Notes: generated by a model from the sequence alone, not told the origin. Counted from the first letter of the stretch, positions 8,958 through 37,801 are shown. The stretch: DNA of 42,074 nucleotides from Opitutales bacterium (GCA_964202105.1 CAXNHL010000001.1:1-42074); one strand, 5' to 3'. Made by a program: numbers and translations.

Positions 8958-8978
8958 GACGTGCGGCGGCGCGACGGC

Positions 8979-9512: not shown

Positions 9513-9554
9513 GGGTGGGGTGGGTGTTGGCTGGGTGGGTTTGGTGTGAGAAAA

Positions 9555-10829
9555 TCAGGAACGCTGGGCGAGGGCCGTGGCCGCGCGTTCGAAGACGAGG
9601 CCGCGCTCCGCGTAGCCGCGGAACTGGTCGAAGCTGGAGAAGCCCGGGCTGAGCAGGATCACGGCGGGGCCGTGCGCGTCCTTGGCGGCGCCGACGACGG
9701 CGTCCTGCAGGGCGGGATAGCAGCGGGCGGACTTGCCGAGCTCGTCGAAGTGGCGCTTGAGCTCCTCGGCGGTCTCGCCGATCAGGTAGGCGGAATCGAT
9801 GAGCGGGGCGATCCGGCGTACGAACCGGCCGAGGTCCCCGCCCTTCCACTTGCCGCCGCCGATCCAACGGACCGGGACGCTGAACTGCGAGAGCGCGGCT
9901 TCGACCGCATGGAAATTGGTGCCCTTGGAGTCGTTCCAGAACTCGACGCCCTTGTTCTCCGCGACCTTGCGGAGGCGGTGCGGCGGGATGCGGAAGAGGC
10001 GGGCCGCTTCCTCGAGCTGGCGGAGCGGCAGGCCGCGGGCCTGCCAATATTTCACGAGCAGGGCCCAGTTCTCGCGCTGCGGCCAGCTGTCGAACACCGA
10101 ACCGGCCGGCACGGTGTCCGTGACTTCGGCGCGGGTGGCCACGAGGGTCTCGGCGGGCAGCTCGATGCCGAAGGCGCGCGCGGCGGCGACGACGGATTCG
10201 CCGACGACGAGGATGCCGCCCGGCATCATGCGCTCGATGAGGCGATACTTCGCCCGGAAATAACTCTCTAGCTCGCCGTGACGGTCGAGGTGGTCCTCGT
10301 CGAAGTTGGTCCACAGCACCGCCTCAGGCGTGAAGTGACGGAGGTCCTCCGCCTGGAAGGAACTGACCTCGACGACCGCGAGGAAGGAACCGTTGGAGAC
10401 GGTGCGATGCAGCGAGGTGAGCGGGAGTCCGACGTTGCCGCAGGCGATGGCGTCGAGGCCGGCGCGCTTGAACGCGAAGGAAAGGAACTCGGTGATGGTC
10501 GTCTTGCCGTTGGTGCCGGTCACGGCCACGGCCGGACCCGTCCAGAGGAGCGCGCCGAAGTCGAGCTCGGTGAGGCAATGCAGGCCCGCGCGGCGGGCGG
10601 CGAGCAGCCACGGGTGCGTCTGCGCGAAGCCGGGGCTGTAGACGAGCAGGTCGTGACGCGCGGCCTCCTCGGGTCCGAACACGCGGTTCTCCCCGCGCTC
10701 GTCGTAGATGACCGAGGCGAAACCGCCCGCGGCGAGCGAGTCGGCGACGGAACGGCCGCTGACGCCTTCGCCGAAGACGGCGGCGGGCCGGGCGAGCCGG
10801 CGGCGGAGGGACTCGGGGAACTCGCTCAT
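9555..10829 (-). CDS. murD: UDP-N-acetylmuramoylalanine--D-glutamate ligase MurD
   Basis: P-loop VTGTNGKTTITEFL and Mur ligase middle and C-terminal domains. Start MSEFPESL at the ATGA overlap with the mraY stop. Confidence 0.9.
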   Translation of the reverse strand: MSEFPESLRRRLARPAAVFGEGVSGRSVADSLAAGGFASVIYDERGENRVFGPEEAARHDLLVYSPGFAQTHPWLLAARRAGLHCLTELDFGALLWTGPAVAVTGTNGKTTITEFLSFAFKRAGLDAIACGNVGLPLTSLHRTVSNGSFLAVVEVSSFQAEDLRHFTPEAVLWTNFDEDHLDRHGELESYFRAKYRLIERMMPGGILVVGESVVAAARAFGIELPAETLVATRAEVTDTVPAGSVFDSWPQRENWALLVKYWQARGLPLRQLEEAARLFRIPPHRLRKVAENKGVEFWNDSKGTNFHAVEAALSQFSVPVRWIGGGKWKGGDLGRFVRRIAPLIDSAYLIGETAEELKRHFDELGKSARCYPALQDAVVGAAKDAHGPAVILLSPGFSSFDQFRGYAERGLVFERAATALAQRS

Positions 10830-11938
10830 CGCAGCTTGAGGGAGAGCAGGCCGAGCAGGCCGCAGAGGAGCGAGAGGATCCAGAAGCGCGCCACGACCTT
10901 CGTGGCGGGCCAGCCCTTTTTCTGGAAGTGGTGATGGATGGGCGTCATCAGGAACAGCCGCTTGCCGCCCGTGCGCTTGAAGTAGGCGACCTGCAGGATG
11001 ACCGAGACGGCTTCGACGACGAACACGCCGCCGACGATGGCGAGCAGGAAGGGCTGACGCATCAGGCACGCGACCGCGCCGAGCGCGCCGCCGAGGCCGA
11101 GCGCGCCGACGTCGCCCATGTAGATCTCCGCCGGCGCCGCGTTGTGCCAGAGGAACACGAGGCTGCCCCCGAAGAGCGCCGCGCAGAAGACCGCGAGCTC
11201 GCCGGCGCCCGTGACGTGGCGGATGCGCAGGTAGGAGGCGAATTCCGCGTGGCCGGCGAGGTAAGCCACCACGCCGAGGATCGCCGTCGTGATGAGCACG
11301 CACCCGATGGCGAGGCCGTCGAGGCCGTCGGTGAGGTTCACGGCGTTCGAGCAGCCGACGCAGACGAGGACGAAGAACGCGCCCGCGACGGTGAGGCAGG
11401 CGGCGAGCGGCCAGCCGAGCGAGCCGGCGGACCACAGCGGCTCCTTCAGGACGGGCAGCCAGACCTCGGCGAGGCCGGTGCGGTAAGACGGGTCGAGCAG
11501 CACGATGCCGAAGGCGGTGAGCGCCACGAAGCCCTGGCCCGCGAGCTTGAAGCGGGCGGAGATGCCGTCGGAGCTGCCGTGACGGACCTTGAGCCAGTCG
11601 TCGTAGAGTCCGACGAGGCCCATGCCGACGAGGCACCAGAGCGAGGCGAAGACGAGGACGCCCGGACGCGCCCACAGGAGCACGGCAGGGATGGTCGCGG
11701 CGGCGATGATCAGCCCGCCCATGGTCGGCACCTTGCCGCCTTCCTTGGCGAGATCACCCATGAGGGCCTTGGAACGTTCGGGCTGACGCAGGCGCGCGAG
11801 CACGCCGATCAGCCGTCCGGAGAAGAGCATGCCCAGCAGCAGGGCCGTGACGCCGGCGAGGATCGCGCGGACGGTGATGTAGTCGAAGAGGCGGAAAGGC
11901 CCCCAGGCGTGGACGAGTTCGCTGAGACGGTAAAGCAT
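10826..11938 (-). CDS. mraY: phospho-N-acetylmuramoyl-pentapeptide transferase MraY
   Basis: 10-TM protein with NAVNLTDGLDGLA and MGDVGALGLGGALG signatures. The start MLYRLSELV lies 1 nt after the murF stop. Confidence 0.92.
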   Translation of the reverse strand: MLYRLSELVHAWGPFRLFDYITVRAILAGVTALLLGMLFSGRLIGVLARLRQPERSKALMGDLAKEGGKVPTMGGLIIAAATIPAVLLWARPGVLVFASLWCLVGMGLVGLYDDWLKVRHGSSDGISARFKLAGQGFVALTAFGIVLLDPSYRTGLAEVWLPVLKEPLWSAGSLGWPLAACLTVAGAFFVLVCVGCSNAVNLTDGLDGLAIGCVLITTAILGVVAYLAGHAEFASYLRIRHVTGAGELAVFCAALFGGSLVFLWHNAAPAEIYMGDVGALGLGGALGAVACLMRQPFLLAIVGGVFVVEAVSVILQVAYFKRTGGKRLFLMTPIHHHFQKKGWPATKVVARFWILSLLCGLLGLLSLKLR

Positions 11939-11939
11939 C

Positions 11940-13313
11940 CTAGTGGAAGGTGAGCGCGGCGCGCAGGTTCGGAGGCAGGCAACGTTCGAGCGCGAACGAG
12001 CGGCTGCCCTTGAGGAAGACATGGCCGCGATGGGCGGCCACGCGGGCGGCGGCCTCCTCGATCGTGGCGGCGACGAAGCCCGCCTCCGGGTGCGCGACTC
12101 CCTGCAGGAACGCCGCCGCATCGCCGCCGAAGACGACCACGCGGTCGTCCGGACGGAGAGGTAGCTGCGCGCCGCAGTCGCGGTGGAGTCGCGCGGAGGT
12201 GGGGCCGAGCTCGGCCATGCCGCCGAGCACGAAAAGACGAGGTTCCGCCGAAGCCCGGCTGCGGCGATCGAAGGCCTGCGCGGCGTCGAGCAGCGAAGCC
12301 GGGCTGGAATTGTAGCAATCGACGGTGAAGGTGCGCGCGCCGTCGACGTGCACGCTGCCGCGACCGGCCGGCGGCGCCCAGGCCGCGAGCGCGGCGGCGA
12401 GTTCGGCGGAGGTGCGGCCGGCGAGCTGCGCGGCGACGACGGCGAGCGCGGCATTGCGCGCGAGGCCGTCGGAGAGCGGGCCGAGCGGGAAGGTCTCGCC
12501 ATCGAGCACGAGCGTGCGTCCGCCGTCGGCGGCGACGCCGAAGGCAGCGCGGACGAGACGCGCGGGCGCGACCGCCGGCAGCGGCTCATCACCGAAGGCC
12601 ACCGCGACCGAGCGGTCCGCGTGGGCGGCGAAATCCGGCCAGGCGAGCAAGGCCGCGGGCAGCACGGCCTGACCGCCGGGAGCGAGGGCGCCGACGAGCG
12701 AAGCCTTCTCGCGGGCGATGCCGGCGAGCGAACCGACGCCTTCAAGGTGGACGGGCGCGACGGCGGTGATGATCGCGATATCGGGGCGGACGACTTCCGC
12801 CGAGACGCCGAGTTCGCCGGGCAGGCTCATGCCCGCCTCGATCACCGCGTAACGGTGGCGGGCCGGGTCGGCGCGTAGCAGCATCAGCGGGACGCCGATG
12901 GTGTTGTTGAGGTTGGCTTCGGTCGCGAAGGCTTCGGCGCCGAGCAACGCGGCGAGGAGCTCCTTGGTCGAGGTCTTGCCGACGCTGCCGGTGATGCCGA
13001 TGACGACGCCGGGGAAAGCCGCGCGGGCGCGGGCCGCGACGCGGCGCAACGCGGCGAGCGGATCGGCGACGACGAGCTGCGGGAGAGGGTCGGCGACGGG
13101 ACGGCCGACCAAGGCGCCGGCGGCGCCCGCGGCGCGGGCGGCGGCGAGGAAATCATGGCCATCGCGACGCTCGGTGCGCACGGCGACGAACATCTCTCCT
13201 GCGCGCAGGGCGCGGGTGTCGATGCCGAAACCGGCGACCGGTCCGGCGGGCGCGGCGGTCCAGCGTCCGTCCGCGCAGGCGGCGAGGTCGGCCGCGGCGT
13301 AAGCGGGGCTCAT
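11940..13313 (-). CDS. murF: UDP-N-acetylmuramoyl-tripeptide--D-alanyl-D-alanine ligase MurF
   Basis: P-loop GITGSVGKTSTKELL and Mur ligase domains. Start MSPAYAAADL at the ATGA overlap with the murE stop. Confidence 0.88.
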   Translation of the reverse strand: MSPAYAAADLAACADGRWTAAPAGPVAGFGIDTRALRAGEMFVAVRTERRDGHDFLAAARAAGAAGALVGRPVADPLPQLVVADPLAALRRVAARARAAFPGVVIGITGSVGKTSTKELLAALLGAEAFATEANLNNTIGVPLMLLRADPARHRYAVIEAGMSLPGELGVSAEVVRPDIAIITAVAPVHLEGVGSLAGIAREKASLVGALAPGGQAVLPAALLAWPDFAAHADRSVAVAFGDEPLPAVAPARLVRAAFGVAADGGRTLVLDGETFPLGPLSDGLARNAALAVVAAQLAGRTSAELAAALAAWAPPAGRGSVHVDGARTFTVDCYNSSPASLLDAAQAFDRRSRASAEPRLFVLGGMAELGPTSARLHRDCGAQLPLRPDDRVVVFGGDAAAFLQGVAHPEAGFVAATIEEAAARVAAHRGHVFLKGSRSFALERCLPPNLRAALTFH

Positions 13314-14830
13314 GCGGAGACGCCCCTCCGGAGCTCGAGGATCTCGCGGACGACCTGACGGTCGTCGAACGGGACCACGGTGTCGGCGAATTCCTGGGTC
13401 GTCTCGTGGCCCTTGCCCGCGATCACGACGCAATCGCCGGCCTTCGCGGCGGCGAGCGCGCGGCCGATGGCGTCGCGGCGGTCGGCGACGAATTCGACGG
13501 TCGGCAGCGGGCCGAGTCCTTCGCGCATATCGGCGAAGATGCGGTCGAGCGGCTCCTTGCGCGGATTATCGGCGGTCGCCCAGGAGAGGTGCGCGAGGTC
13601 GGCGACGGCCTGGGTCATCGCGGGGCGCTTGCCGCGGTCGCGATCGCCGCCGCAACCGAAGACGCAGAGCACGCGGCCGGGCGTGATGTCGCGGAGCATG
13701 CGCAGGGCGTTGCGGAGCGCATCGTCGGTGTGCGCGTAGTCGACGAAGACGGGGAAAGCCTGGCCGGCTTCGACGCGCTCCATGCGGCCGGCGACGCCGG
13801 GGAAGGCGGCCAGCGCCGACGCGAGGGCGAGCGGGTCGCGGCCGAGCGCGGCGGCCATCGCGAGGGCGCAGAGGACGTTGGAGACGTTGTAGTCGCCCGG
13901 GAGGGTCGACTTGAAGACCGCGGCGCGGCCCGCGTGGCGGACGGTGAAGACCGCGCCACCGGTATCGAGGGCGAGGTCCGTCGCGCGGACGTCGGCGTCG
14001 GCCGAGAGACCGAAGGTGAGCACCGCGCCGCGGCGCCGGCAGGCCTCGGCGAGCACGCGGCCGGACGGGTCGTCGACGTTGATCACGCAGACGTCCGGCA
14101 CGGCGCCGTTGCGGCCGTCGAAGAGCATCGTCTTGACGTCGAGGTAGGCGGCGAGGTCGCCGTGGTAGTCGACGTGGTCGCGGGTGAGGTTCGTGAAGGC
14201 CGCGACCTCGAAGCGGAAACCATGGACGCGTTCCTGGTGGAGCGCGTGGGAGCTCACCTCGAGGCAGGCGCCGGCGCAGCCCGCGTCGGCCATCTGGCGG
14301 AAGAAGGCGGCGAGGTCGGCCGAATCGGGCGTCGTCTTATAAGAAGGGATGGTGCGCCGGCCGAGGTGGTAGCGGACCGTGCCGACGAGGCCCCACTGCG
14401 AACCGTCGTCCTGGAGCAGATGGCGCAGCAGCGTCGAGACCGTGGTCTTGCCGTTGGTGCCCGTCACGCCGACGAGGCGCAAGGCCTCCTCAGGACGGCC
14501 GTAGAAACGGCGGGCGATCTCGGCGAGCATCCGGCGCGGGTCGGCGACCTGGGCGGCGGCGACGGCGGGCAGGCCGGCGACCGGCTCACCCGAGATGATC
14601 GCGGCGGCGCCGCGGGCGATCACGTCGTCGAGGAAGGCGTGACCGTTGGAGCGCAGGCCCGGGAGGGCGAAGAAGAGCGCGCCCGGGATCACGCGGCGGC
14701 TGTCCGTCACGATCGTGGTCACGCGCACCGAACCGTCGCCCGTCCGGCCGAGCACGGGCAGCCCTTGGAGCAGCGCGTTGAAGGTCGGACGTTCCATCGA
14801 GGCGGGCATCATCGCGGGCGGAGGCGTCAT
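13310..14830 (-). CDS. murE: UDP-N-acetylmuramoyl-L-alanyl-D-glutamate--2,6-diaminopimelate ligase MurE
   Basis: P-loop GVTGTNGKTTVSTLL, a DNPR motif (ATADNPRKE) and HVDYHG. Start at the ATGA overlap with the ftsI stop. Confidence 0.9.
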   Translation of the reverse strand: MTPPPAMMPASMERPTFNALLQGLPVLGRTGDGSVRVTTIVTDSRRVIPGALFFALPGLRSNGHAFLDDVIARGAAAIISGEPVAGLPAVAAAQVADPRRMLAEIARRFYGRPEEALRLVGVTGTNGKTTVSTLLRHLLQDDGSQWGLVGTVRYHLGRRTIPSYKTTPDSADLAAFFRQMADAGCAGACLEVSSHALHQERVHGFRFEVAAFTNLTRDHVDYHGDLAAYLDVKTMLFDGRNGAVPDVCVINVDDPSGRVLAEACRRRGAVLTFGLSADADVRATDLALDTGGAVFTVRHAGRAAVFKSTLPGDYNVSNVLCALAMAAALGRDPLALASALAAFPGVAGRMERVEAGQAFPVFVDYAHTDDALRNALRMLRDITPGRVLCVFGCGGDRDRGKRPAMTQAVADLAHLSWATADNPRKEPLDRIFADMREGLGPLPTVEFVADRRDAIGRALAAAKAGDCVVIAGKGHETTQEFADTVVPFDDRQVVREILELRRGVSA

Positions 14831-16623
14831 CGGCCGAGGTCGGCCACGGGGCCGCGCGGGAGGGTGGAGACGGGCGGGAGGTCGAGCCAGCGGATGCACT
14901 TCTCGGCGACCTCGCGGAAGATCGGCGCGGAGACCTTGCCGCCGTAGCCGACGCCTTCGCCCTGCGGCTCGTCGATGATCACGGTGATGGCCAGCTTCGG
15001 GTCGCCGACGGGGAAGAAGCCCGCGAACGAGGCGACGTGGTGGGCGGAGGAATAGCGGCCGTTGACGATCTTCTGCGTCGTGCCCGTCTTGCCGGCGACC
15101 TCGTAGCCCGGGATGTCGGCGATCGGGGCGGTGCCGCCCTTGCCGCAGACGGCGCGCAGGAGCGTGGCGAGCTGCGTGGCGGTCGCGGGCGAGACCGCGC
15201 GGCCGCGCGAGCGCGGGGCGTAGTCGAGCACGGTGGCCTTGGTCTTCGGATCCTCGACGCGGAGCACCAGCTGCGGCTGCATCAGCAGGCCGTCGGCGGC
15301 GACGACCGACATCGCCATGTGCATCTGCATCGCGGTGACGCTGACGGAGTGGCCCATCGGGACGCGGGAGATCGTGAGCCCGTCCCAACGCTTGGGCGGG
15401 ATGAGCAGGCCGGGCACCTCGGCGCCGGTGATCAGGCCCGTCGGGGCGCCGAAGCCGAACGACTTGATGAGGCCGAAGAAGCGGTCCTCGCCCAAGCGTT
15501 CGGCGTACTGCATGCCGACCTGGACCGTGCCGCGGTTCGAGGACTCGCGGACGATCTGGCGGATGTCGGCGGAACCGATGGCGTGCGAGTCGGCCGGGAG
15601 CGAGACCATGCGGCCGCGGTAGGGGACGCTCGTCGCGCCGCAGTCGTAGACGGAGTTCGGCGTGATCAGGCGTTCTTCGAGCGCGCCGGCGACGGCGACG
15701 ATCTTGAACACCGAGCCCGGCTCATAGACGTCGGAGACCGCGCGGTTGCGCTGGCTGTCCATCGGCGCGGCCTGCGGGTCGAAGAAACGGTTCAGGTCGA
15801 AGGTCGGCCAGTTCGCGAGGCCGAGGATGCGGCCGGTACGCGGCTCGCTGACGATGATGACCGCGCCTTTGGGATTGTAGCGGGCCGCGGCGGCGGCGAG
15901 CGCCTCCTCGCAGGTCTTCTGGATGAGGCCGTTGATCGTGAGCACGACGGTGCTGCCGTCGACCGGGGAGACCTCGCGCAGGCGGATGCTCGTGAGCTCG
16001 CGGTGGCGGCCGTCGCGTTCGGATTCGATCCAACCCTTCTGGCCTTCGAGGAGCGAGTTCATCACGCTCTCGATGCCGGCGGCGGGGACGCCCTCCTTGT
16101 TGACGTAACCGAGCACGTGCGCGGCGAGCTGGCCCTTGGGGTAGCTGCGGCGGTATTTCAGTTCGGCGCGGAGCGCCTTGATGCCGAGCGCCCTGACGCG
16201 CTTGACCACGTCCTCGCCGGCCTCGCGCGCGAGCACGGTCCAGCGGATGACATGCTCCTCGCCGGCGGAATCGGTGCGGACGGTGGTGTCGAAGGCCTGG
16301 CGGACCTTCAGGGCGGGCAGGCCGAGCGCGACCGCGACCTCGGCCGCGCGTTCGCGGTCGGCCTTGGTGAGCACGTCGGGGTCCACACCGATGTCCCAGA
16401 CGTCCTCGGACAGCGCGAGCAGGTTGTCCTGCGCGTCACGGATGTCACCGCGGCGGCACGGCTTCTCCTGGAGCACGCGACGGGCCTGCAAGGCCTCCGC
16501 GCGCAGACGAGGGGCGTCGACCCAATGCAACCAGACCAGCCGTGTGACCACGGCCAGGAAGCAGAAGGGGACGACCCATGCCAGCAAACGGTAGCGCGTT
16601 CGCCTGGCGTGGGGCAGGCTCAT
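14827..16623 (-). CDS. ftsI: class B penicillin-binding protein / peptidoglycan D,D-transpeptidase FtsI
   Basis: N-terminal TM anchor, SxxK (GSVFKIV) and KTG (GKTGTTQK) motifs, and a PBP dimerisation domain. Position between ftsL and murE. Confidence 0.88.
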   Translation of the reverse strand: MSLPHARRTRYRLLAWVVPFCFLAVVTRLVWLHWVDAPRLRAEALQARRVLQEKPCRRGDIRDAQDNLLALSEDVWDIGVDPDVLTKADRERAAEVAVALGLPALKVRQAFDTTVRTDSAGEEHVIRWTVLAREAGEDVVKRVRALGIKALRAELKYRRSYPKGQLAAHVLGYVNKEGVPAAGIESVMNSLLEGQKGWIESERDGRHRELTSIRLREVSPVDGSTVVLTINGLIQKTCEEALAAAAARYNPKGAVIIVSEPRTGRILGLANWPTFDLNRFFDPQAAPMDSQRNRAVSDVYEPGSVFKIVAVAGALEERLITPNSVYDCGATSVPYRGRMVSLPADSHAIGSADIRQIVRESSNRGTVQVGMQYAERLGEDRFFGLIKSFGFGAPTGLITGAEVPGLLIPPKRWDGLTISRVPMGHSVSVTAMQMHMAMSVVAADGLLMQPQLVLRVEDPKTKATVLDYAPRSRGRAVSPATATQLATLLRAVCGKGGTAPIADIPGYEVAGKTGTTQKIVNGRYSSAHHVASFAGFFPVGDPKLAITVIIDEPQGEGVGYGGKVSAPIFREVAEKCIRWLDLPPVSTLPRGPVADLGR

Positions 16624-17000
16624 CGCGCGCCGGGTCCTCCCTGCCCTCCCGAACCGAGGAAGGCGATTTCGCGGGCCGTCATCCGGGGGCTCGCGGAGAA
16701 AAGGGTGACCGGGGACGCGGCCGAAGGGTTGATACGGATCCAGACGACCTGCTCGGGCACCGGCGGCTTGAGGGCGTCGCCGATGCGCTGCTGCAGGTAG
16801 AGGATGTCGACGGTCTGCTGGGCTTGCCGGCGGGCGCTGTCGTACTCCTTCTTAGATAGGGTGGTGTCGCGTTCGAGGCGCTGGATGCGGCTGCCGATCG
16901 TGTCGGCCTCGACGCGCAGGCGCATGATGTTGATCGTGCCCACGGCGAAGGCCGCCACGGTGGCGAGGAGGCAGGCCCAGGTGAGGAGGCGCGGGCTCAT
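16620..17000 (-). CDS. ftsL: FtsL-like small bitopic cell-division protein
   Basis: 126 aa with one TM helix (LLTWACLLATVAAFAVGTI) followed by a coiled-coil-like segment. Canonical slot between rsmH and ftsI. 4-nt overlaps on both sides. Confidence 0.5.
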   Translation of the reverse strand: MSPRLLTWACLLATVAAFAVGTINIMRLRVEADTIGSRIQRLERDTTLSKKEYDSARRQAQQTVDILYLQQRIGDALKPPVPEQVVWIRINPSAASPVTLFSASPRMTAREIAFLGSGGQGGPGAR

Positions 17001-17914
17001 GCGGCGAGGCGGCGCACGGCGCGGAGGCGCGCCGAGCGGCTGCGGGGGTTGCGGAGCTGTTCGTCCTCGGAAGGCTGGACGGCCTTGCGGGTGAGGAGGT
17101 CGGCCTGCTTGACGCGGTCGTCCTGGTTGCGGGCGTCGTCGCGGTCGACGGGGCGGCCGGCGACCTCGTTCATGTAGCGCTTCACCATCCGGTCCTCGAG
17201 GGAATGGAAGGAGATGACGGCGAGCACGCCGCCGGCGTTGAGCTTGCCGAAGGCGAGCGGGAGGGCGTCGGCCAGGGCACCGAGCTCGTCGTTGACCGCG
17301 ATGCGGACGCCTTGGAAGGTGCGGGTGGCCGGGTGCGGGCCGCGGGGGCCGGGCGCGGGGGGCGCGGCTTCGGCGACGAGTTCGGCGAAGCTGGCGGTGC
17401 GGGCGAGGCGGCCGGTGCCGCGGGCGGCGACGATCGCGTTGACGACGCGGAACCAGCGGGGCTCCTCGCCGTAGTCGCGGACGGCGCGTTCGAGTTCGGC
17501 GCGGTCGCCGCGCTCGAGGAACTCGGCGGCGCTGCGGCCGACGCGCGTGTCCATGCGCATGTCGTTCGGCGCGTCGAAGCGGAAGGAGAAACCGCGTTCC
17601 GGGACATCCAACTGGTACGAGGACACCCCAATGTCCATCAGAACACCGTCGAATCGCCCCGGGACGCGGTCAAGGTGGCGGAAATTTTCGGAATGGAAAC
17701 GCAGGCGGCCGGCATGGGCGGCGAGCAGCGCGGCGGAACGTTCGCCGGCCGCGGGATCGCGGTCCATCGCGTCGACCGAGCAGCCCGGCGCCCGCGCGAG
17801 GATCGCCGCGGTATGGCCGCCGCCGCCGAAGGTGCAGTCCAGGTAGGCGCGCCCGTCCAGCGGAGCGAGGAGCGTCAGGCACTCCTCGAGCAGGACTGGG
17901 ACGTGGCTGGTCAT
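16997..17914 (-). CDS. rsmH: 16S rRNA (cytosine1402-N4)-methyltransferase RsmH (MraW)
   Basis: HVPVLLEE, DCTFGGGGH, DIGVSSYQLD and SFHSLEDR motifs. Confidence 0.92.
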   Translation of the reverse strand: MTSHVPVLLEECLTLLAPLDGRAYLDCTFGGGGHTAAILARAPGCSVDAMDRDPAAGERSAALLAAHAGRLRFHSENFRHLDRVPGRFDGVLMDIGVSSYQLDVPERGFSFRFDAPNDMRMDTRVGRSAAEFLERGDRAELERAVRDYGEEPRWFRVVNAIVAARGTGRLARTASFAELVAEAAPPAPGPRGPHPATRTFQGVRIAVNDELGALADALPLAFGKLNAGGVLAVISFHSLEDRMVKRYMNEVAGRPVDRDDARNQDDRVKQADLLTRKAVQPSEDEQLRNPRSRSARLRAVRRLAA

Positions 17915-17966
17915 GCGGCGGTCTGTGAATAAGGTGTGAGCAGTGTAAGTAACTTCCGGATACGCA

Positions 17967-18419
17967 TCACAGGCCGAGCTCGCGCAGGGCGCGGAGGATC
18001 TCCTTGGCGTACTCGGAATCGCGGTCGGCCTTGGGCGGCGTCGGCGAGACGAGCTGGAACGTGGTGAAGGCGCCGCGGAAGATCACTTCGCGCTCGAGGC
18101 GCGCTTCCTTGACGATGTGGTCGTTGAGCGTGATGCGGCCGGCCTTGTCGCACGTGACCTGGATGCTGTTCGCGCCGAGCAGGCTGAGCGCGTCCATCTT
18201 CACCGGATCGCTGACGGTCACCTGCAGCGCGGCGTCGTGGATGCGCGCGGCCATCGACGGCGGGAACACCACGATCGCGGCGACCGCGGGGTGATACATC
18301 GCGAGGAAGGTGGATTCCGCGTCAAAACGCCAGGCCGCCGGGATGGTGACACGGTTCTTCTCATCCAACTTTCCGTTGTGGATGCCGGTGAAGAGACCGT
18401 TGTTGGCGCCAATAGACAT
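17967..18419 (-). CDS. mraZ: transcriptional regulator MraZ
   Basis: 150 aa with two MraZ/SpoVT-AbrB repeats carrying DxxxR motifs (DEKNRVTIP, DKAGRITLN). First gene of the dcw cluster. Confidence 0.9.
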   Translation of the reverse strand: MSIGANNGLFTGIHNGKLDEKNRVTIPAAWRFDAESTFLAMYHPAVAAIVVFPPSMAARIHDAALQVTVSDPVKMDALSLLGANSIQVTCDKAGRITLNDHIVKEARLEREVIFRGAFTTFQLVSPTPPKADRDSEYAKEILRALRELGL

Positions 18420-31861: not shown

Positions 31862-33331
31862 ATGCAAACCGACCGGGAAGAACTTTCGCCCAAGGCCAAG
31901 GCCCGGCGTGCCCCCCATACCCCGGGCGTCTACCTGATGAAGGACGCCGCCGGGCTGGTCGTCTACGTAGGCAAGGCCAAGGACCTCAAGAAGCGCCTGG
32001 CCTCCTATTTCGTGCCCCGCCAGCGAATGACCCCCAAAGTGGCCGCGATGATGGACACGGTGGCGGACATGGAATGGCACGAGGTCCGGTCCGAGACCGA
32101 AGCCCTCCTTCTAGAAGGCAAGCTGATCAAACGCTGGCGCCCCCGCTGGAACATCCTCTTCCGCGACGACAAGCAGTTCCCCCAGGTCCGGGTCGACCTC
32201 GCCGACCCCCTCCCCCGCTTCCGCATCGTCCGCGCCCGCACGACCGATGCCTGCCGCTATTTCGGTCCCTTCCCTCATCAGCAGGCGGTCCGCCGCACGC
32301 TCAACGAGATGCGCAAGAAATTCGGCATCCTGCTCGCCGACAGCAACCCGGTCGCTCAGCCCGACGGGACATGGAAACTTTACGACGACGCCCGCGCCGA
32401 AATCCAGAAGCACGGTAACGTGATCACCGCCGAGGAATACGCCGTGCGCGTGACCGAGGCGTGCGCGTTCCTCGAAGGCAAGGTCGAGAGCTGGGCCGAA
32501 CAGGTCGAGGTCGACATGCGCAAGGCCGCCGCGGAGCGTGATTACGAGAAGGCCGCGAGCCTGCGCGACCTGCTCGACGCGCTGAAGCGCACGACGGAGA
32601 AATCGCGCCGCTTCCTCCGCGAGAATCCCCTGCCCCGCCGCGACGAAGCCGGCGCCCTCGCCTCGCTCGCCGCCGCCCTCGGCCTCGAGCGCCCGCCCGC
32701 CACGGCGGAGTGCTTCGACATCTCGCACATCTCCGGTACGCTCGCGGTGGCGTCGATGGTGCGCTTCGTCGACGGCCAGGCCGACAAGTCCGGCTACCGT
32801 CGCTTCAAGATCAAGTCCTTCGAAGGCAACGACGACTTCCGCTCGATGCAGGAAGTCGTCGGCCGCCGCTACACGCGCCTGCACGAAGAGCACCGCGCCT
32901 TCCCCGAGCTCGTCATCATCGATGGCGGCCTCGGCCAGGTCGGCGCCGCGCTCGCGGCCTTCAAGGAACACGACCTCGCCCCGCCTCCGCTCATCGGCCT
33001 CGCCAAGCGCGAAGAGACGATCGTCTTCCCCGACGGCCGCGAGCTGAAGCTGCCGCGGCACGACGTCGGTCTCGCCCTGCTCATGCGCATTCGCGACGAG
33101 GCCCACCGCTTCGCCAACGACTTCAACGCCGAACTCCGCAGCCGCAAGCTACGCGAGTCGCTGCTCGACGAGATGCCCGGCCTCGGGCCCAAGCGGAAGG
33201 ACGCGCTGCTCGAACATTTCGGCAGCATCCAGAAGCTGCGCAAGGCCACCGTCGAGGAGATCGCCGAAGTTGCCGGCCTCAGCGACAAACTCGCCGGCGA
33301 AGTGAAGGCGTATCTAGAGGCGAGAGGGTGA
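31862..33331 (+). CDS. uvrC: excinuclease ABC subunit C (compact, 489 aa)
   Basis: GIY-YIG (GVYLMKDAAGLVVYVGKAKDLKKRLASYF), UVR motif (ERDYEKAASLRDLLDAL), endonuclease core (ECFDISHISG) and C-terminal (HhH)2 (MPGLGPKRKDALLEHFGS). Confidence 0.92.
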   Translation: MQTDREELSPKAKARRAPHTPGVYLMKDAAGLVVYVGKAKDLKKRLASYFVPRQRMTPKVAAMMDTVADMEWHEVRSETEALLLEGKLIKRWRPRWNILFRDDKQFPQVRVDLADPLPRFRIVRARTTDACRYFGPFPHQQAVRRTLNEMRKKFGILLADSNPVAQPDGTWKLYDDARAEIQKHGNVITAEEYAVRVTEACAFLEGKVESWAEQVEVDMRKAAAERDYEKAASLRDLLDALKRTTEKSRRFLRENPLPRRDEAGALASLAAALGLERPPATAECFDISHISGTLAVASMVRFVDGQADKSGYRRFKIKSFEGNDDFRSMQEVVGRRYTRLHEEHRAFPELVIIDGGLGQVGAALAAFKEHDLAPPPLIGLAKREETIVFPDGRELKLPRHDVGLALLMRIRDEAHRFANDFNAELRSRKLRESLLDEMPGLGPKRKDALLEHFGSIQKLRKATVEEIAEVAGLSDKLAGEVKAYLEARG

Positions 33332-33336
33332 GGGTA

Positions 33337-33357
33337 GGGACGCGATGACATCGCGTC
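33337..33357 (+). terminator. perfect 9-bp hairpin just after the uvrC stop (possible terminator, no U-tract)
   Basis: ggacgcgat-gac-atcgcgtcc, 6 nt after the TGA. Only GTT follows, so its function as a terminator is uncertain. Confidence 0.35.
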
Positions 33358-33400
33358 CGTTCGCCGAAAGACAAAGGGAGACCGGAAACCAGAAAGGATG

Positions 33401-33457
33401 CTTGGGCTATGATGTCCCCAGCCAATCATCCGGTCTCCGGTTTCCCTTTGAGTTATG
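33401..33457 (+). repeat. copy 1 of a ~55-nt repeated intergenic element
   Basis: 33416-33456 matches 35653-35693 at 40 of 41 nt (ccccagccaatcatccggtctccggtYtccctttgagttat). A further ~15 nt upstream is similar (ttggg(g)ctWtgatg). Confidence 0.85.
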
Positions 33458-33558
33458 CGTCACTGTCTTGGGTAGGGTTGAGCGCCCTCGCTCGACCGTG
33501 GCTGACCAAGGGTGGTCAGCCCTACCCCGACCAACCAGGGCAGCACGCGGTGCCGCCC

Positions 33559-34647
33559 CTACCTCTTCACCGCCATCTCCCGCTCCACCAGATCTGCCAC
33601 GCGGTCGGCGCCGCCGGCATCACCGAGTCGGTCGACCGAGGCTTTCCACCTCTTCCAAAGAGCCCAGTCACCGGTGAAAGCTTCAGCGATGATCTTACGC
33701 GCCGAGTCAGGCGTGAGGCCGTAGGCGCCGGCGTGATGCTCGGCGATGAGGCGGCCATTGCCGGCTTCCTGGCCGGGAATGACCTGAGTGATCACCATCG
33801 GCACGCCGGCCGCGACGCACTCATGCGTGGTCGCGCCGCCGGCCTTGCTGACGACGAGGTGGCTCGAAAGCATCAGCGCCGGGATCCGGTCCGTCCAGCC
33901 GAGCACTTCGGCACGGCCTTCGACGGCGCGCTCGACGGCTTCCTTGAAGGACGCATCCTTGCCCACGGTGATCGTGAGCTCGAGCCCGAGCGTGGATAGG
34001 GCCGTGGCGAGTTCGACGGCGTCGCGCTTGCCGGGATTAAGCATCAGGAGCACGCGCGGGCGTTCGCCGACCTTGGCCGAAGAACGCGGGGCGAGGCGCG
34101 ACGAGACGGGGAAACCGTAAGGCAGGACCTTCGCGGCGGGCACGCCCTGGCGGATCATGACGTCGGCGGTCGCCTGGTTCGGGGTGACATACCAGTCGGA
34201 GTGCGCGCGATGCCAGGCGCGGTTCACGGAAATGGAATCAGTGACGACGGTGATCAGGCGCGGGCGGGCGGGATCGTCGCGATGCCAGCGCCGGCCCATC
34301 ATGTAGTTATAGAGCGGGTAAGCCGAGACCACGACGGGCGGCTGCGTCGCGTCGAGCATCGCATTCAAGGTCTTCTCGACCGGACGCACGAACGGCAGCG
34401 AAGCGCGCACAAGCGGCAGGCGATCGAGGGCCGTATACAGGCAGCCCCAGAGACGCGGATACTTGTTCGCGACGCCGATATAGTTGTCGCGCTGGCTCCG
34501 TGCCTTCTCCGCGCCGTAGGCTTCGAGGAAGAGGTCGTGCAGTTCGCCGGTCAGGCCGGGCTTGCGGGCGAGCGCTTCGATGATCGAACGCGCGGCGGCG
34601 TTGTGGCCTTCGCCGAAACCGGCCGTGAGGACGGGGATGACGCTCAT
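33559..34647 (-). CDS. UgtP/MGDG-synthase-like diacylglycerol glycosyltransferase (GT28)
   Basis: N-terminal MGDG_synth-type domain (VLTAGFGEGHNAAA, VVSAYPLYN, VVTDSISVNRAWH..SDWYVTPN) and a GT28-type C-domain (LVVSKAGGATTHECVAAGVPMV). The start ATG overlaps the upstream stop (TGATG). Confidence 0.8.
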   Translation of the reverse strand: MSVIPVLTAGFGEGHNAAARSIIEALARKPGLTGELHDLFLEAYGAEKARSQRDNYIGVANKYPRLWGCLYTALDRLPLVRASLPFVRPVEKTLNAMLDATQPPVVVSAYPLYNYMMGRRWHRDDPARPRLITVVTDSISVNRAWHRAHSDWYVTPNQATADVMIRQGVPAAKVLPYGFPVSSRLAPRSSAKVGERPRVLLMLNPGKRDAVELATALSTLGLELTITVGKDASFKEAVERAVEGRAEVLGWTDRIPALMLSSHLVVSKAGGATTHECVAAGVPMVITQVIPGQEAGNGRLIAEHHAGAYGLTPDSARKIIAEAFTGDWALWKRWKASVDRLGDAGGADRVADLVEREMAVKR

Positions 34648-35516
34648 CAGGCGACGAAGGAGATCGTGGCGCTGGCCTCGCCGGCGGGCGCGGGCGAACC
34701 AGTCTTGGCGGCCTCGAAGGCGGCACGGCGTTCGGCGATGCGGCGGAGGAGTTCCGGGCGTTCGACGACGCGGATGGTGCCGTCGTCTTCTTCGACCACG
34801 GCGGTCAGGGATTCGACCCAGTCGCCGGAGTTGATGTAGCGGACGTTGCCGATCATGCGGTCCTCGGCCTTGTGGATGTGGCCGCACATCACGCCTTCGC
34901 AGCCGCGGCGCGCGGCCAGGGTCTGCAGGTGTTCCTCGAAGCTCGAGATGAAGCTGACCGCCGACTTGACCTTGGCCTTGATGGCCTGCGAGAGGGAGAA
35001 GTACTCCTTGCCGCGCCAGGCGCGCCACTTGTTGTAGACGCGGTTCAGGTCGAGGAGGATCTGGTAGCTGATGTCGCCGATCACGGCCAGCCAGCGCATC
35101 TTGACGGTGACGGTGTCGAACGCGTCGCCGTGGATGCAGAGGTATTTACGGCCGTCCTGAGCGACGTGGATGTGTTCTTCGGCGAGCTCGATACGGTCGA
35201 GCACGAGCGGGATCAGCCGGCGGATGAAGTCATCGTGGTTGCCGCGCAGGTAGACGACCTTCGTGCCGTCCTTCTCCGCCATCTTCATGATGCGGCGGAT
35301 GACGGCCGTATGCGCCGGGCTCCAATGGTTCTTCCGCTGCAGCGACCAGAGGTCGATGATGTCGCCGTTGAGGATGAGCTTGTCGCAACGGATACCGCGC
35401 AGTACGTCGAGGAGCTCGCGCGCCTGGGCGTCCTTGGTGCCCAGATGGAGATCCGAAAGGACCAACGTCCGGAAGTGGATCTTATGCTGCCCAGGGACCT
35501 TGGTGGTTTCTTCCAT
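34647..35516 (-). CDS. LpxH/PlcP-family calcineurin-like metallophosphoesterase
   Basis: LVLSDLHLG, LNGDIIDLW, YLRGNHDDF, IHGD and CGHIH metallophosphoesterase motifs. Has GNHD rather than the GNRD of E. coli LpxH. 289 aa with a C-terminal extension. Confidence 0.8.
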   Translation of the reverse strand: MEETTKVPGQHKIHFRTLVLSDLHLGTKDAQARELLDVLRGIRCDKLILNGDIIDLWSLQRKNHWSPAHTAVIRRIMKMAEKDGTKVVYLRGNHDDFIRRLIPLVLDRIELAEEHIHVAQDGRKYLCIHGDAFDTVTVKMRWLAVIGDISYQILLDLNRVYNKWRAWRGKEYFSLSQAIKAKVKSAVSFISSFEEHLQTLAARRGCEGVMCGHIHKAEDRMIGNVRYINSGDWVESLTAVVEEDDGTIRVVERPELLRRIAERRAAFEAAKTGSPAPAGEASATISFVA

Positions 35517-35637
35517 GGGACCAAAGATTACGTGACGATGGTGTCAGTCCCGCGTCAGATGCGTCTTAATAAGGTAACAGAAAGACAAGGTATTGGCGGT
35601 CAGCGATTAGCGGTTGGGAAGTGACCAAGCGCGCAAG

Positions 35638-35693
35638 TTTGGGGCTTTGATGCCCCAGCCAATCATCCGGTCTCCGGTCTCCCTTTGAGTTAT
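35638..35693 (+). repeat. copy 2 of the ~55-nt repeated intergenic element
   Basis: See copy 1. It has the same orientation and lies 122 nt upstream of the phosphoesterase start codon. Confidence 0.85.
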
Positions 35694-35707
35694 CCTTCTT
35701 CTCTTCC

Positions 35708-35741
35708 CGCCACCTGCCACCCGGGGCTGCCACCCGCCACC
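35708..35741. repeat. 34-nt perfect mirror repeat of YGCCACC heptamers
   Basis: cgccacc-tgccacc-cggggc-tgccacc-cgccacc. The sequence reads the same in both directions on one strand, so it is a mirror repeat and not a reverse-complement repeat. Confidence 0.8.
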
Positions 35742-35755
35742 TGAATTCATGCGTT

Positions 35756-35900
35756 CTGTCCTCTGTCATCCACTCAGTCCTCCACTCAGTCCTCAACGCA
35801 GTCCTCCATTCAGTCCTCTATTCAGTCCTCCGTGATCGATTCAGCCCTCTGTCCTCTGTCATCGATGCAGTCATCGACTCAGCCCCCCACCCTCTGTCAC
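35756..35900 (+). promoter_or_regulatory. array of same-orientation CWGTCMT heptamers, including exact Pho-box half-sites CTGTCAT; candidate response-regulator (PhoB-type) binding region
   Basis: Heptamers start at 35756, 35763, 35775, 35787, 35799, 35811, 35823, 35849, 35856, 35868 and 35894. Degenerate copies start at 35842 and 35880. The 15-mer ctgtcctctgtcatc occurs twice (35756 and 35849). Confidence 0.45.
35771..35830 (+). repeat. five tandem 12-nt repeats NNNYCAGTCCTC
   Basis: cactcagtcctc, cactcagtcctc, aacgcagtcctc, cattcagtcctc, tattcagtcctc. They are contiguous and in phase. Confidence 0.9.
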
Positions 35901-35905
35901 CTAAT

Positions 35906-35943
35906 CGTAACAATCGTAATGGCCTGATGTTACGATTGTTACG
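35906..35943. promoter_or_regulatory. perfect 14-bp inverted repeat (candidate operator or leader hairpin) upstream of DUF47-pit
   Basis: cgtaacaatcgtaa (35906-35919), a 10-nt spacer, then ttacgattgttacg (35930-35943). AT-rich in a GC-rich genome. Ends 67 nt upstream of the ATG at 36011. Confidence 0.5.
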
Positions 35944-36010
35944 GAATGGTGTCGAACTGGGCTTGCCCCCCTCCCCCTGCCCCACCTTGAACGGACTCAC
36001 CCAAACACCC

Positions 36011-36652
36011 ATGAAAGACTTCCTCAAGAAGGTCCTCGGTAAGGATGAAAAGTTCTACGAACTCCTCGAAGCCAGCGCCGACGAAGCGCAGAAGAGCGCG
36101 AAGTCGCTCTCGAAGCTCTACGCCCAGGTCGGCAAGCCGGACTTCGAGCAGTGCTTCACCGAGCTCGTCGTCGCCCGCCGCGTCGACAAGCGCATCGGCC
36201 TCTCGATCACCCAGGAACTCTGCCAGACCTTCGTGACCCCGCTCGAGCGCGAGGACATCGAAGCCCTCGCCAACGCCCTTTATAAGATCCCGAAGACCTG
36301 CGAGAAGATCGGCGAACGCCTCGCCATCTGCCCCTCCCAGTTCTCGACCGACATCGTCGACAAGCAGGTGCGCATGCTCGAGCAGGCCACCGAAGTCACC
36401 GCCTCCCTCGTCCGCAAGCTGCGCAAGCTCTCGAACGTCGAGGAGATCCAGGACGATTACGAGACCCTGCAGACGATCGAAGGCGACGCCGACCGCCTGA
36501 TGGTGGGCCTCCTCCGCGACCTCTACCAGGGTAACGTCGATGCCAAGGAAGTCGTCGTCCTGAAGGACATCTACGAACTCCTCGAGCGCGCGATCGACCA
36601 TTGCCGCGACGCCGGCAAGGTCGTGTTCCAGATCGCCCTCAAGTACGCCTAA
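36011..36652 (+). CDS. DUF47-family (PhoU-like) phosphate transport regulator
   Basis: 213 aa, all-helical. MKDFLKKVLGKDEKFYELLE start and an EGDADRL motif. Directly precedes a PiT transporter, as in the known orfA-pit / ykaA-pit pairs. Confidence 0.85.
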   Translation: MKDFLKKVLGKDEKFYELLEASADEAQKSAKSLSKLYAQVGKPDFEQCFTELVVARRVDKRIGLSITQELCQTFVTPLEREDIEALANALYKIPKTCEKIGERLAICPSQFSTDIVDKQVRMLEQATEVTASLVRKLRKLSNVEEIQDDYETLQTIEGDADRLMVGLLRDLYQGNVDAKEVVVLKDIYELLERAIDHCRDAGKVVFQIALKYA

Positions 36653-36673
36653 GCCCGCGCCCCGTCTCCGGCT

Positions 36674-37801
36674 ATGGATCCCTTCCTGCTGATGGTGATG
36701 GTCATCGTGGTGGCCGTGGTGTTCGAATACATCAACGGCTTCCATGACGCGGCCAACGCCATCGCGACCGTCGTCTCGACGCGCGTGCTGACGCCCCGCC
36801 AGGCGATCATGCTCGCGGCGGTGACCAACCTCTTCGGCGCCTTCTGGGGCACCGCGGTGGCGAAGACGATCTACTCCGGCTACATCGACATGGCGGGAGG
36901 GCACATCGCCATCGAAGGCATGCAGCTCGCCATCGCCTGCGGCCTGATGGGCGGCATCGTCTGGAATCTCATCACCTGGTGGTTCGGCATCCCCTCCAGT
37001 TCCTCCCACGCGCTCATCGGCGGTCTTTGCGGCGGCGTCCTCGGACTGACCCACCTGAACTGGAACAGCCTCATCTGGTCCGCGACGGATTCCGCCGGCA
37101 AGACGGTCGGCCTCTGGCCGAAGCTCATCAAGCCGATGATCATCTCGCCTTTCGTCGGCTTCACGCTCGGCGTGATCTTCATGATGCTCCTGACGATGCT
37201 CATCGTACGTCTTTCGGTCCGGCCCAGCATCGTCAGCAAGGTCTTCGGCAAGCTGCAGCTGGTCTCCGCCGGCCTGATGGGTTTTTCGCACGGCTCCAAC
37301 GACTCCCAGAAGACGGTCGGCATCATCACCTTCGCCCTCATCGTCGGCGTCGGCGCCGGGGCCTTCGATCCGGCCCACGCCCCGTCCTGGGCCCAATGGT
37401 TCAAACCTACCTTGAACGCCAAGAACGGCGTAGACCAGGTGCCGCTCTGGATCATCGCCCTCTGCGCGGTGACGATGGCCGCGGGCACCGCCGCCGGTGG
37501 CTGGCGCATCATCCGCACGATGGGCCACAAGATGGTGAAGTTGCAGCCGGTCCACGGCTTCGCGGCCGAGACCGCCGCCGCGATCACGATCACCGGCGCC
37601 TCCGAACTAGGCATCCCCCTTTCCACGACGCACGTCATCTCGACCTCCATCCTCGGCGTCGGCGCGTCGAAGCGTTTCGACGCGGTGAGATGGGGCCTGG
37701 TCGGACGTATCGTCTGGGCTTGGGTGCTGACCATCCCGATTACGTTGACGCTCGGCTATCTGTTCTTCCGAGGCTGCGTGCTGGTCGGTTGGGCGAAGTA
37801 A
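36674..37801 (+). CDS. pit: inorganic phosphate transporter, PiT family
   Basis: PHO4/PiT signatures GFHDAANAIAT and GSNDSQKT. Polytopic membrane protein. Confidence 0.92.
   Translation: MDPFLLMVMVIVVAVVFEYINGFHDAANAIATVVSTRVLTPRQAIMLAAVTNLFGAFWGTAVAKTIYSGYIDMAGGHIAIEGMQLAIACGLMGGIVWNLITWWFGIPSSSSHALIGGLCGGVLGLTHLNWNSLIWSATDSAGKTVGLWPKLIKPMIISPFVGFTLGVIFMMLLTMLIVRLSVRPSIVSKVFGKLQLVSAGLMGFSHGSNDSQKTVGIITFALIVGVGAGAFDPAHAPSWAQWFKPTLNAKNGVDQVPLWIIALCAVTMAAGTAAGGWRIIRTMGHKMVKLQPVHGFAAETAAAITITGASELGIPLSTTHVISTSILGVGASKRFDAVRWGLVGRIVWAWVLTIPITLTLGYLFFRGCVLVGWAK

Follow-up and report, generated by a model that had tools for sequence, protein, structure and literature searches.

A probable PlcP-type membrane-lipid renovation operon with a GT28 glycosyltransferase, divergent from a DUF47-PiT operon, in an Opitutales bacterium

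We analysed a stretch of 42,074 nucleotides from an Opitutales bacterium (GCA_964202105.1, CAXNHL010000001.1:1-42074), which we call the window, and focused on a locus where two gene pairs are transcribed away from each other (Table 1). The first pair encodes a metallophosphoesterase that resembles PlcP, a phospholipase C, together with a glycosyltransferase (GT) of family GT28, which includes the synthases of monogalactosyldiacylglycerol (MGDG). The second encodes a PhoU-like DUF47 protein and a PiT-family transporter of inorganic phosphate (Pi). An initial annotation of this DNA had described the first pair as a lipid-renovation module of phosphate starvation, divergent from a phosphate uptake operon. 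Its account of the genes was accurate: the reading frames and motifs of the 289-amino-acid (aa) LpxH-family phosphoesterase and of the glycosyltransferase are all present, as is the TGATG junction (GCCTGATGAGC), where the TGA of the former and the ATG of the latter have one base in common, and both DUF47 and PiT were confirmed with Pfam on the opposite strand. We place the start of DUF47 at ATG 36011, the methionine from which its homologues align and from which genes of 213 aa are called in comparison loci L015 and L019. Hence, the spacer between plcP and DUF47 spans positions 35517-36010. Its length is exactly the 494 bp annotated, and its description as repeat-dense was apt, since no tandem repeat of the window scores higher than the one found there (12-bp unit, 5.9 copies, score 93). 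For comparison we fetched 223 loci, about 1.6 Mb in total, designated below by L-numbers. Public records label the homologues as Verrucomicrobiota, Opitutae, or Opitutales.

Table 1. Genes, candidate control elements, and repeats at the locus (positions in the window; MAGs, metagenome-assembled genomes; REP, repetitive extragenic palindromic).
Feature	Position	Strand	Remarks
GT28 glycosyltransferase gene, MGDG-synthase/UgtP family, 362 aa	33559..34647	-	PF06925 + PF04101; TGATG coupling to plcP
plcP-like gene for a 289-aa Mn-type metallophosphoesterase in the PlcP/LpxH2 group (predicted to release diacylglycerol as a phospholipase C)	34647..35516	-	Pfam Metallophos, PlcP identity, motifs
DUF47/PhoU_div gene, 213 aa from MKDFLKK	36011..36652	+	PF01865 at 37.5 bits
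PiT-family inorganic phosphate transporter gene, 375 aa	36674..37801	+	PF01384 PHO4 at 314.7 bits
-10-like hexamer TAATCT	35525..35530	-	6 nt downstream of direct repeat, 8 nt upstream of ATG
11-bp-phased direct repeat CTGACGCGGGA-CTGACAC, candidate activator (Pho-box-like) site	35541..35558	-	only exact window match to YTGWCRY-N4-YTGWCRY
GTAAC-rich palindrome AATCGTAACAATCGTAAT N9 GTTACGATTGTTACGG, candidate bidirectional operator	35903..35945		14-nt perfect arms 35906-35919, 35930-35943
Tandem array of six 12-bp units in phase, YTCWGTCMTCCA	35761-35832	+	heptamers: see next row
Second, degenerate 12-bp cluster	35841-35902	+	array + cluster (35761..35902) hold CTGTCAT/CTGTCAC heptamers
Dispersed-repeat modules: hairpin module CCCCAGCCAATCATCCGGTCTCCGGTCTCCCTTTGAG + GCCACC-rich module	35636..35741		also found next to 12-bp arrays in numerous Opitutales MAGs
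uvrC/GT convergent intergenic region	33332..33558		hairpin module + REP-like double hairpin ending CCCTACC

The phosphoesterase matches the Pfam family Metallophos at 50.3 bits and contains all six motifs of PlcP and LpxH, in the form SDLHLG, NGDIIDLW, RGNHDDF, IHGD, CGHIH, and SGDW. Across 23 homologues, with identities as low as 50%, no variation occurs in the residues D22, H24, G51, D52, N93, H94, D95, H129-D131, H213, H215, and G231-W233. According to the legend of Fig. S5 of PMC9239053, PlcP and LpxH have in common the motifs DXH, GDXXD, GN(H/R)D, HGD, GHIH, and GDW. That work and PMC3087551 describe the histidine of the third motif as conserved in PlcP and needed for its activity, and as replaced by arginine in LpxH. 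In the window protein this motif is GNHD, with a histidine at position 94, and the aligned motif of Escherichia coli LpxH is GNRD. The initial annotation had taken this difference as a weak argument against a role in lipid A synthesis. The direction was right but the weight was understated, since the His/Arg difference is a published discriminator between the two enzymes.

As PlcP references we used the orthologue of Pseudomonas aeruginosa PA3219, which has Agt1 as a neighbour (L010), and the orthologue of Sinorhizobium meliloti SMc00171 (281 aa, L011), both taken from mislabelled chromosomal records in PLSDB. The proteins PA3219 and SMc00171 themselves have been characterised as PlcPs by genetic or biochemical means (PMC8528852). 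LpxH was represented by the protein of E. coli K-12 and by the set of the Protein Data Bank (PDB). The window phosphoesterase is 48% identical to the P. aeruginosa PlcP over 255 aa (E 1e-81) and 40-41% identical to that of S. meliloti over 237-255 aa (E about 1e-62), but only 27% identical to E. coli LpxH, over 122 aa (E 2e-5). Since the two PlcP references are 46.6% identical to each other (249 aa, E about 1e-86), the window protein is as near to them as they are to one another. It does not pass the equivalog hidden Markov models (HMMs) of LpxH, with 38.9 bits for NF003743 against a cut-off of 134 and 26 bits for TIGR01854 against 190.35. A phmmer search of every PDB chain, LpxH structures included, returned no LpxH at E<=0.01 and only a weak match to TM1076. 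The four best fold matches in the PDB to an AlphaFold (AF2) model of the protein (mean predicted local distance difference test, pLDDT, of 79.7) are LpxH structures (E about 1e-9), as expected because the fold with a helical lid is common to both enzymes. Our survey of the genes of the window found no lpx genes in the neighbourhood. In P. aeruginosa, LpxH2 failed to complement E. coli lpxH, and Opitutus terrae, the sole Opitutae genome in Table S1 of the same study, is listed as LpxH-negative, LpxH2-positive, and LpxI-positive (PMC3087551), so that another enzyme handles the lipid A step in that genome. Taken together, the identity to orthologues of characterised PlcPs, the sub-threshold LpxH scores, and the GNHD motif support the assignment, already proposed in the initial annotation, to the PlcP/LpxH2 type and not to LpxH. 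The PGAP and IMG annotations name the whole PlcP-type family "UDP-2,3-diacylglucosamine diphosphatase/LpxH", although the scores of its members stay well under the cut-offs of the LpxH equivalogs. Such naming, apparently wrong for the PlcP-type family, seems to be a systematic over-annotation.

The product of the second gene passes the Pfam thresholds of MGDG_synth (PF06925, 56.1 bits for a cut-off of 25) and Glyco_tran_28_C (PF04101, 29.9 bits for a cut-off of 22), so that all three families expected for the pair were matched. Its closest solved relatives by sequence are UgtP, a processive diacylglycerol beta-glucosyltransferase (9wde, 1.5e-12), and MGD1 of Arabidopsis (4wyi, 3.3e-11). The motifs G12-E-G-H15-N16, K268-AGGA, E276, and P291-GQE-x-GN297 align with those of MGD1 and UgtP and are invariant in 17 homologues with 37-88% identity. 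Structural work on MGD1 reportedly gives a catalytic role to the histidine of the N-terminal GxGH. BLASTP revealed no similarity between the window protein and P. aeruginosa Agt1, whose domains are Glyco_transf_4 and Glycos_transf_1. The Agt enzymes of the known systems had been described as GT4-type, and both these domains and PMC9239053 bear this out. These results support the view that the glycosyltransferase is a member of the MGDG-synthase/UgtP family, where it is a relative and not an orthologue of Firmicute UgtP, that it is unrelated to the GT4-type Agt, and that, as proposed, a GT28 enzyme takes the place of Agt.

The two genes remain together in many other Opitutales loci, in line with the translationally coupled operon read from the window. 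They are adjacent, with an overlap of 1-4 nt or a gap of 3 nt, in L001, L002/3, L005-9, L014-19, L131, L142-146, and L224-225. Among these, L014-19 are strains of the window's own species and the others have 75-97% PlcP identity. In one Opitutales lineage (L002 10013-11779, L003 7296-9062) the pair is followed by the gene of a 588-aa protein with the domains Acyltransf_2 and Acetyltransf_5, the two domains that make up the ornithine-lipid synthase OlsF. If this OlsF-like label holds, the three genes would form a cluster for phosphorus-free lipids.

We then considered the 80 best metagenomic relatives of PlcP. Around 65 of the 80 have a lipid-type glycosyltransferase adjacent or near, be it GT28, an Agt-like GT4, or PF13528. 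The GT28 gene is directly downstream of PlcP in five, and for six more a GT28 that is 34-38% identical lies in the cluster, in four of the six together with an Agt-like GT4. An Agt-like GT4 accompanies 19 of the 80 relatives, and a PF13528 (Glyco_trans_1_3) glycosyltransferase is found downstream in 39, where PlcP is about 45-52% identical to the window protein (L171-L220). In nearly every case, then, a PlcP homologue comes with a lipid-type glycosyltransferase, and at least three families serve as partners, which is strong guilt-by-association evidence for a function that leads from diacylglycerol to glycolipid. The homologue is adjoined by a PhoU gene in L182 and L199, and by a regulator of the OmpR type in L201 and L202. 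The clusters with two glycosyltransferases include L152, L158, L160, and L165, where an Agt-like GT4 gene and a GT28 MGDG_synth-like gene lie beside a PlcP homologue of 52-57% identity, and suggest that two different glycolipids are made from one supply of diacylglycerol. The reference for PF13528 is a record of Parabacteroides distasonis (L012 4753-5907), to which the glycosyltransferase of at least one locus, L211, is 100% identical. Two further homologues, P0107 (428 aa) and P0110 (372 aa), also bear the GT4-type domains PF00534 and PF13692; they could be fusions of PlcP to Agt, or gene calls that ran on.

The phosphate uptake operon was rightly given as the divergent neighbour of the pair, and the arrangement recurs in several further lineages. 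We found it in L143, L145, L146, L224, and L225, with 76-98% identity in DUF47, which rules out that DUF47-PiT is a species-specific insertion in the window. In L005 (6291-7902), and also in L006 and L007, whose PlcP is 85% identical, four small open reading frames on the same strand (75, 188, 113, and 148 aa in L005) replace DUF47-PiT; a Pfam search of the four of L005 gave no match. Operons of the DUF47-PiT kind are low-affinity systems. The similar orfA-pit of S. meliloti is one for Pi uptake that PhoB represses when Pi is scarce, whereas pit of E. coli is expressed constitutively (PMC3131613).

Considering these elements, the locus is probably a two-gene operon for PlcP-type renovation of membrane lipids. 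In a first step, a cytoplasmic PlcP with a binuclear metal centre (probably Mn2+) would act as a phospholipase C on the bulk glycerophospholipids phosphatidylethanolamine, phosphatidylglycerol, and phosphatidylcholine, and release diacylglycerol and a phosphorylated head group. In a second step, the coupled GT28 enzyme, a predicted monotopic protein of the GT-B fold, would glycosylate that diacylglycerol with a hexose taken from a UDP-sugar. The mono- (possibly oligo-) glycosyl-diacylglycerol formed in this way would replace phospholipid and free phosphorus, in an operon that faces, in the window and in several related lineages, what would be a low-affinity DUF47(PhoU-like)-PiT uptake operon. 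The substrates of both enzymes are predicted from the families to which their sequences belong. We infer that the operon would be induced under phosphate limitation, because the PlcPs of published studies act in lipid remodelling in this condition, namely those of S. meliloti, Phaeobacter, SAR11, P. aeruginosa, and Methylosinus (PMC4796936; PMC8528852; PMC9239053), and because a phosphate-transport neighbour is conserved.

The spacer between the two operons had been said to carry Pho-box-like heptamers. They are present, with two CTGTCAT and one CTGTCAC, but they are units of a dispersed repeat and not Pho boxes. CTGTCAY is not over-represented across the window (4 found, 5.5 expected), and both CTGTCAT and CAGTCCT are variants of the 12-bp unit. 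The flagged heptamers follow a period of 12 or 7 bp, where the canonical E. coli-type Pho box, a pair of 7-nt direct repeats that takes the place of the -35 region, has 11 bp, and lie 240-380 bp from plcP. We scanned for three phased units, taking one genome per species, and at least 120 loci matched. Of the 120 matches listed, 35 are in MAGs of Verrucomicrobiota, Opitutae, or Opitutales, and one MAG often holds several of them. In these loci, arrays are found between convergent housekeeping genes verified with Pfam (CorA/PriA, and DUF1501/aminotransferase in two genomes), downstream of RNase R, beside AspRS, and directly after tRNA-Leu genes. In the close relative L131 (97% for the metallophosphoesterase), a 12-bp array lies between the GT28 gene and uvrC. 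The strains of the window's species (L014-L019) differ by one 12-bp unit, and assemblies or scaffolds break inside the repeats (35690-35832). L015 and L017 have the GCCACC module in the opposite orientation and with different flanks, and the first CTGTCAT block is gone. The orthologous spacers between plcP and DUF47 in L145 and L146, of about 200-220 bp, contain no 12-bp array. Given this dispersal, this variability, and the absence from orthologous spacers, the repeat-dense part of the spacer has been colonised by a family of intergenic repeats, and we reject the heptamers, which are phase variants of its unit found at the 3' ends of unrelated genes, as Pho boxes. The hairpin module of the spacer has a second copy at 33418-33457, downstream of the GT gene and beside the REP-like double hairpin. 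In freshwater Opitutales, the modules of the family are 12-bp arrays (YTCWGTCMTCNA), GGTGGC/GCCACC-rich modules, hairpins of about 40 nt (CCCCAGCCAATCATCCGGTCTCCGGTYTCCCTTTGAG), REP-like CCCTACC double hairpins, and a module CTATGTCGTGACGCGGTCCCGACCCTACC. The family may be REP/BIME-like, MITE-like, or of another kind. An Rfam search of 33200-36100 returned only a chance match to a microRNA (E 0.56), and thus no evidence of a riboswitch or small RNA in the spacer.

Two other elements of the spacer are better candidates for operators than the 12-bp repeats, as judged from sequence. The first is a direct repeat, CTGACGCGGGA-CTGACACCATC, located 21-42 nt upstream of the plcP ATG. The pattern YTGWCRY-N4-YTGWCRY has one exact match in the window for 0.11 expected. 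In the whole set of fetched loci (~1.6 Mb), its matches are confined to the promoters of orthologous plcP genes and of E. coli phoB and pstS, a site in L123, and one intragenic site; as the pattern was written after the site had been seen, these matches are a lead and not a test. The site in L123, an Opitutae MAG (4997-5014, - strand), lies about 25 nt upstream of the gene of a PTP-like phosphatase (Y_phosphatase3) that bears a signal peptide. In L002, L008, L142, L143, L144, and L146 the first unit of the repeat also stands 42 nt from the ATG, and in L142 the second unit is TTGTCATAAAT. The hexamer TAATCT may serve as a -10 element, in which case the plcP mRNA would be leaderless or nearly so. 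A hexamer TAnnnT stands at the same offset in L142 (TACTTT), L143 (TAATCT), and L002 (TAGGCT). A direct repeat with such a hexamer behind it is also how the E. coli phoA promoter is arranged.

The second element is the GTAAC-rich palindrome, which is present in all the DUF47-containing spacers that we examined closely (L143, L145, and L146). It is also found upstream of plcP where DUF47-PiT is missing (L005-7 and L001), and in a relative of 52% identity (L166, 3800-4000). A site for a protein is favoured over an RNA hairpin, because L146 keeps the half-sites while its spacers are not complementary. The hexamers GTAACR/YGTTAC are concentrated in the spacer, with 4 of the 11 matches of the window in 494 of its 42,074 bp (P 6e-6, binomial, an optimistic value since the test ignores the lower G+C content of intergenic DNA). 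In other loci, the spacers between plcP and DUF47 contain 4 of the 4 matches of L145 and 4 of the 6 of L146. The hexamers are likewise concentrated upstream of a DUF47-PiT operon that stands apart from plcP (3 of 4 matches of L227, at 3572-4000) and upstream of the gene of a phosphate-selective porin (Porin_O_P) in another MAG of Verrucomicrobiota (3 of 4 matches of L096, at 1150-1342). The rare GTAACR/YGTTAC half-sites, with the core (C)GATTGTTAC, cluster upstream of plcP, DUF47-PiT, and Porin_O_P, and are a candidate for a lineage-specific, phosphate-responsive operator. A scan for sigma-70 promoters and terminators gave one weak promoter-like site on the - strand, TCGACA-17-TAACAT, inside the palindrome region, and no convincing terminator.

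Control by Pi, if any, would most plausibly act through the direct repeat at 35541-35558, the palindrome at 35903-35945, or both, with no part for the 12-bp repeats. If an operator is indeed shared, it may drive the plcP and PiT operons in opposite directions, since orfA-pit is repressed on Pi starvation. One could go further and suppose that the palindrome, perhaps together with the direct repeat, is the non-canonical box of a verrucomicrobial phosphate-responsive regulator, which would act as one reciprocal switch (renovation on, PiT off) and mark other phosphorus genes, such as the phosphate-selective porin, by the same motif. We regard this more specific model as conceivable but rather doubtful.

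Several observations weigh against a renovation operon under phosphate control. The glycosyltransferase is not an orthologue of the Firmicute UgtP: its best match in NCBIfam, the diglucosyl-diacylglycerol synthase model NF010135, gives 82.9 bits for a cut-off of 500, and its acceptor and sugar donor are accordingly predicted ones. At 55-60% identity there are PlcP homologues with no adjacent glycosyltransferase, in Rubellicoccus (L004, 56%) and L140 (60%), and GT28 proteins of about 40% identity stand alone in Terrimicrobium and L141, so that members of this family may also serve constitutive roles. DUF47-PiT is absent beside the pair in L001, L002/3, L005-9, L142, and L144. Finally, the pattern of the direct repeat was drawn from the site itself, and a tblastn search of all the fetched loci with E. 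coli PhoB, PhoR, PhoU, and PstSCAB found no Opitutales pst operon with which the candidate motifs could be compared.

Some of these points fit a scenario in which the glycolipid is made constitutively, or under a stress other than phosphate limitation (envelope stress, antimicrobial peptides, growth phase), with PlcP supplying diacylglycerol free of any Pho control and PiT nearby by coincidental synteny. The stand-alone GT28 homologues of other Verrucomicrobiota, the close relatives that lack DUF47-PiT, and a spacer whose flagged heptamers are dispersed repeats and which has no verified Pho box would all be expected in this case, and the glycolipids of P. aeruginosa are known to protect also against polymyxin (PMC8528852). 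However, the published PlcPs act under phosphate limitation, the adjacency to DUF47-PiT recurs down to 76% identity in DUF47, PhoU or response-regulator genes adjoin some PlcP homologues, and a Pho-box-like direct repeat is found at a position appropriate for a promoter. Hence, we consider this scenario unlikely. Less probable still is that the two enzymes have other substrates, for instance ceramide, polyprenol, or a lipid-linked intermediate for the glycosyltransferase, and another phosphodiester or a pyrophosphate lipid for the phosphoesterase. The distant relation to UgtP and MGD1, with its sub-threshold equivalog score, leaves some room for this, as does the lid of the phosphoesterase (residues 131-190), which would bind the lipid and is modelled with a block-mean pLDDT of about 50-77. 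Yet PF06925, whose threshold is passed, is specific to diacylglycerol glycosyltransferases of the MGDG-synthase/UgtP type, PlcP homologues pair with three unrelated families of glycosyltransferases, including Agt, which has been proven experimentally to be specific for diacylglycerol (PMC8528852), and the OlsF-like neighbour points to bulk replacement of membrane lipids. That the phosphoesterase is the lipid A enzyme LpxH (UDP-2,3-diacylglucosamine diphosphatase) is very improbable: the PGAP and IMG names, the nearest solved folds, and the best NCBIfam matches suggest it, but the scores of those very models (38.9 for 134 and 26 for 190), the PDB search, GNHD in place of the LpxH-specific GNRD, the failed complementation by P. 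aeruginosa LpxH2 with an LpxI-positive O. terrae (PMC3087551), and the absence of lpx genes nearby all speak against it.

The remainder of the 42-kb window is ordinary chromosome. A complete dcw cluster of cell-wall and division genes occupies 118-18419 on the - strand, with ftsZ, ftsA, a fused murC-murB reading frame (4394-6721), and a LysM protein. It is followed by aroC, a holB-like gene, pfk, a purB-like gene, holA, cinA, and uvrC. On the far side of PiT lie two sulfatase genes and one of the alginate-lyase family.

If the renovation operon is real, abundant freshwater Opitutales would spare phosphorus by means of PlcP and a GT28 enzyme of the plant and Firmicute type, and not with the proteobacterial GT4 Agt. 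The known strategy of lipid renovation would thereby extend to a phylum that has been little studied and that is frequent in phosphorus-limited lakes, and Verrucomicrobiota could be credited with part of the glycolipid signals of lake lipidomes. Two consequences concern annotation. The LpxH label of the window phosphoesterase can be dropped with more confidence than initially assumed, and the finding that Pho-box-like heptamers in Verrucomicrobiota genomes can be repeat debris is a warning for similar readings of motifs.

The novelty of the locus is smaller than first implied, because there are precedents for both of its parts. PlcP was reported in Verrucomicrobia in 2015, in three genomes where Agt is either the partner or encoded at another place (PMC4796936 Table S2), and plcP beside a UgtP-like diacylglycerol glycosyltransferase was noted in type Ia methanotrophs in 2022 (PMC9239053). 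What is new here is the lineage, with a partner family, GT28, whose role beside PlcP is predicted; it is not a new kind of system. The closest known system is the PlcP-Agt pathway of S. meliloti (SMc00171), Phaeobacter sp. MED193, 'Ca. Pelagibacter' HTCC7211, P. aeruginosa (PA3219-PA3218/PA0842), and Methylosinus trichosporium OB3b, which has the same GNHD enzyme of the LpxH2 type, the same operon with a downstream glycosyltransferase, and the same predicted chemistry, from phospholipid to diacylglycerol and then to glycosyl-diacylglycerol. It differs in that the partner in the window is a GT28 and not a GT4 enzyme, that the operon faces DUF47-PiT, and that the Pho box is a candidate only. The type Ia methanotrophs Methylobacter tundripaludum and Crenothrix (PMC9239053) have the same PlcP with a diacylglycerol glycosyltransferase like UgtP of Bacillus subtilis, likewise a prediction, but they are Gammaproteobacteria whereas the window belongs to Verrucomicrobiota (Opitutales), and the two GT28 partners are likened by their descriptions only.

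The likeness to LpxH consists of the metallophosphoesterase fold with an inserted helical lid and five of the six motifs. The differences are GNHD for GNRD, an identity of 27% that extends over no more than 122 aa, HMM scores that fall short of the cut-offs by a factor of 3.4 to 7, and the lack of an lpx context. The glycosyltransferase has the PF06925 and PF04101 domains of B. subtilis UgtP (a processive diacylglycerol beta-glucosyltransferase), plant MGD1, and CAZy family GT28, together with their GxGH and KAGG...E...GQExGN motifs, but the similarity is distant (E 1e-11 to 1e-12), and UgtP and MGD1 are encoded alone, in contrast to the window gene, which is in an operon with a predicted phospholipase C. 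Finally, the DUF47/PhoU-like and PiT pair is that of S. meliloti orfA-pit, with the difference that it divergently adjoins plcP in the window. If it behaves like orfA-pit, it would be off when plcP is on.

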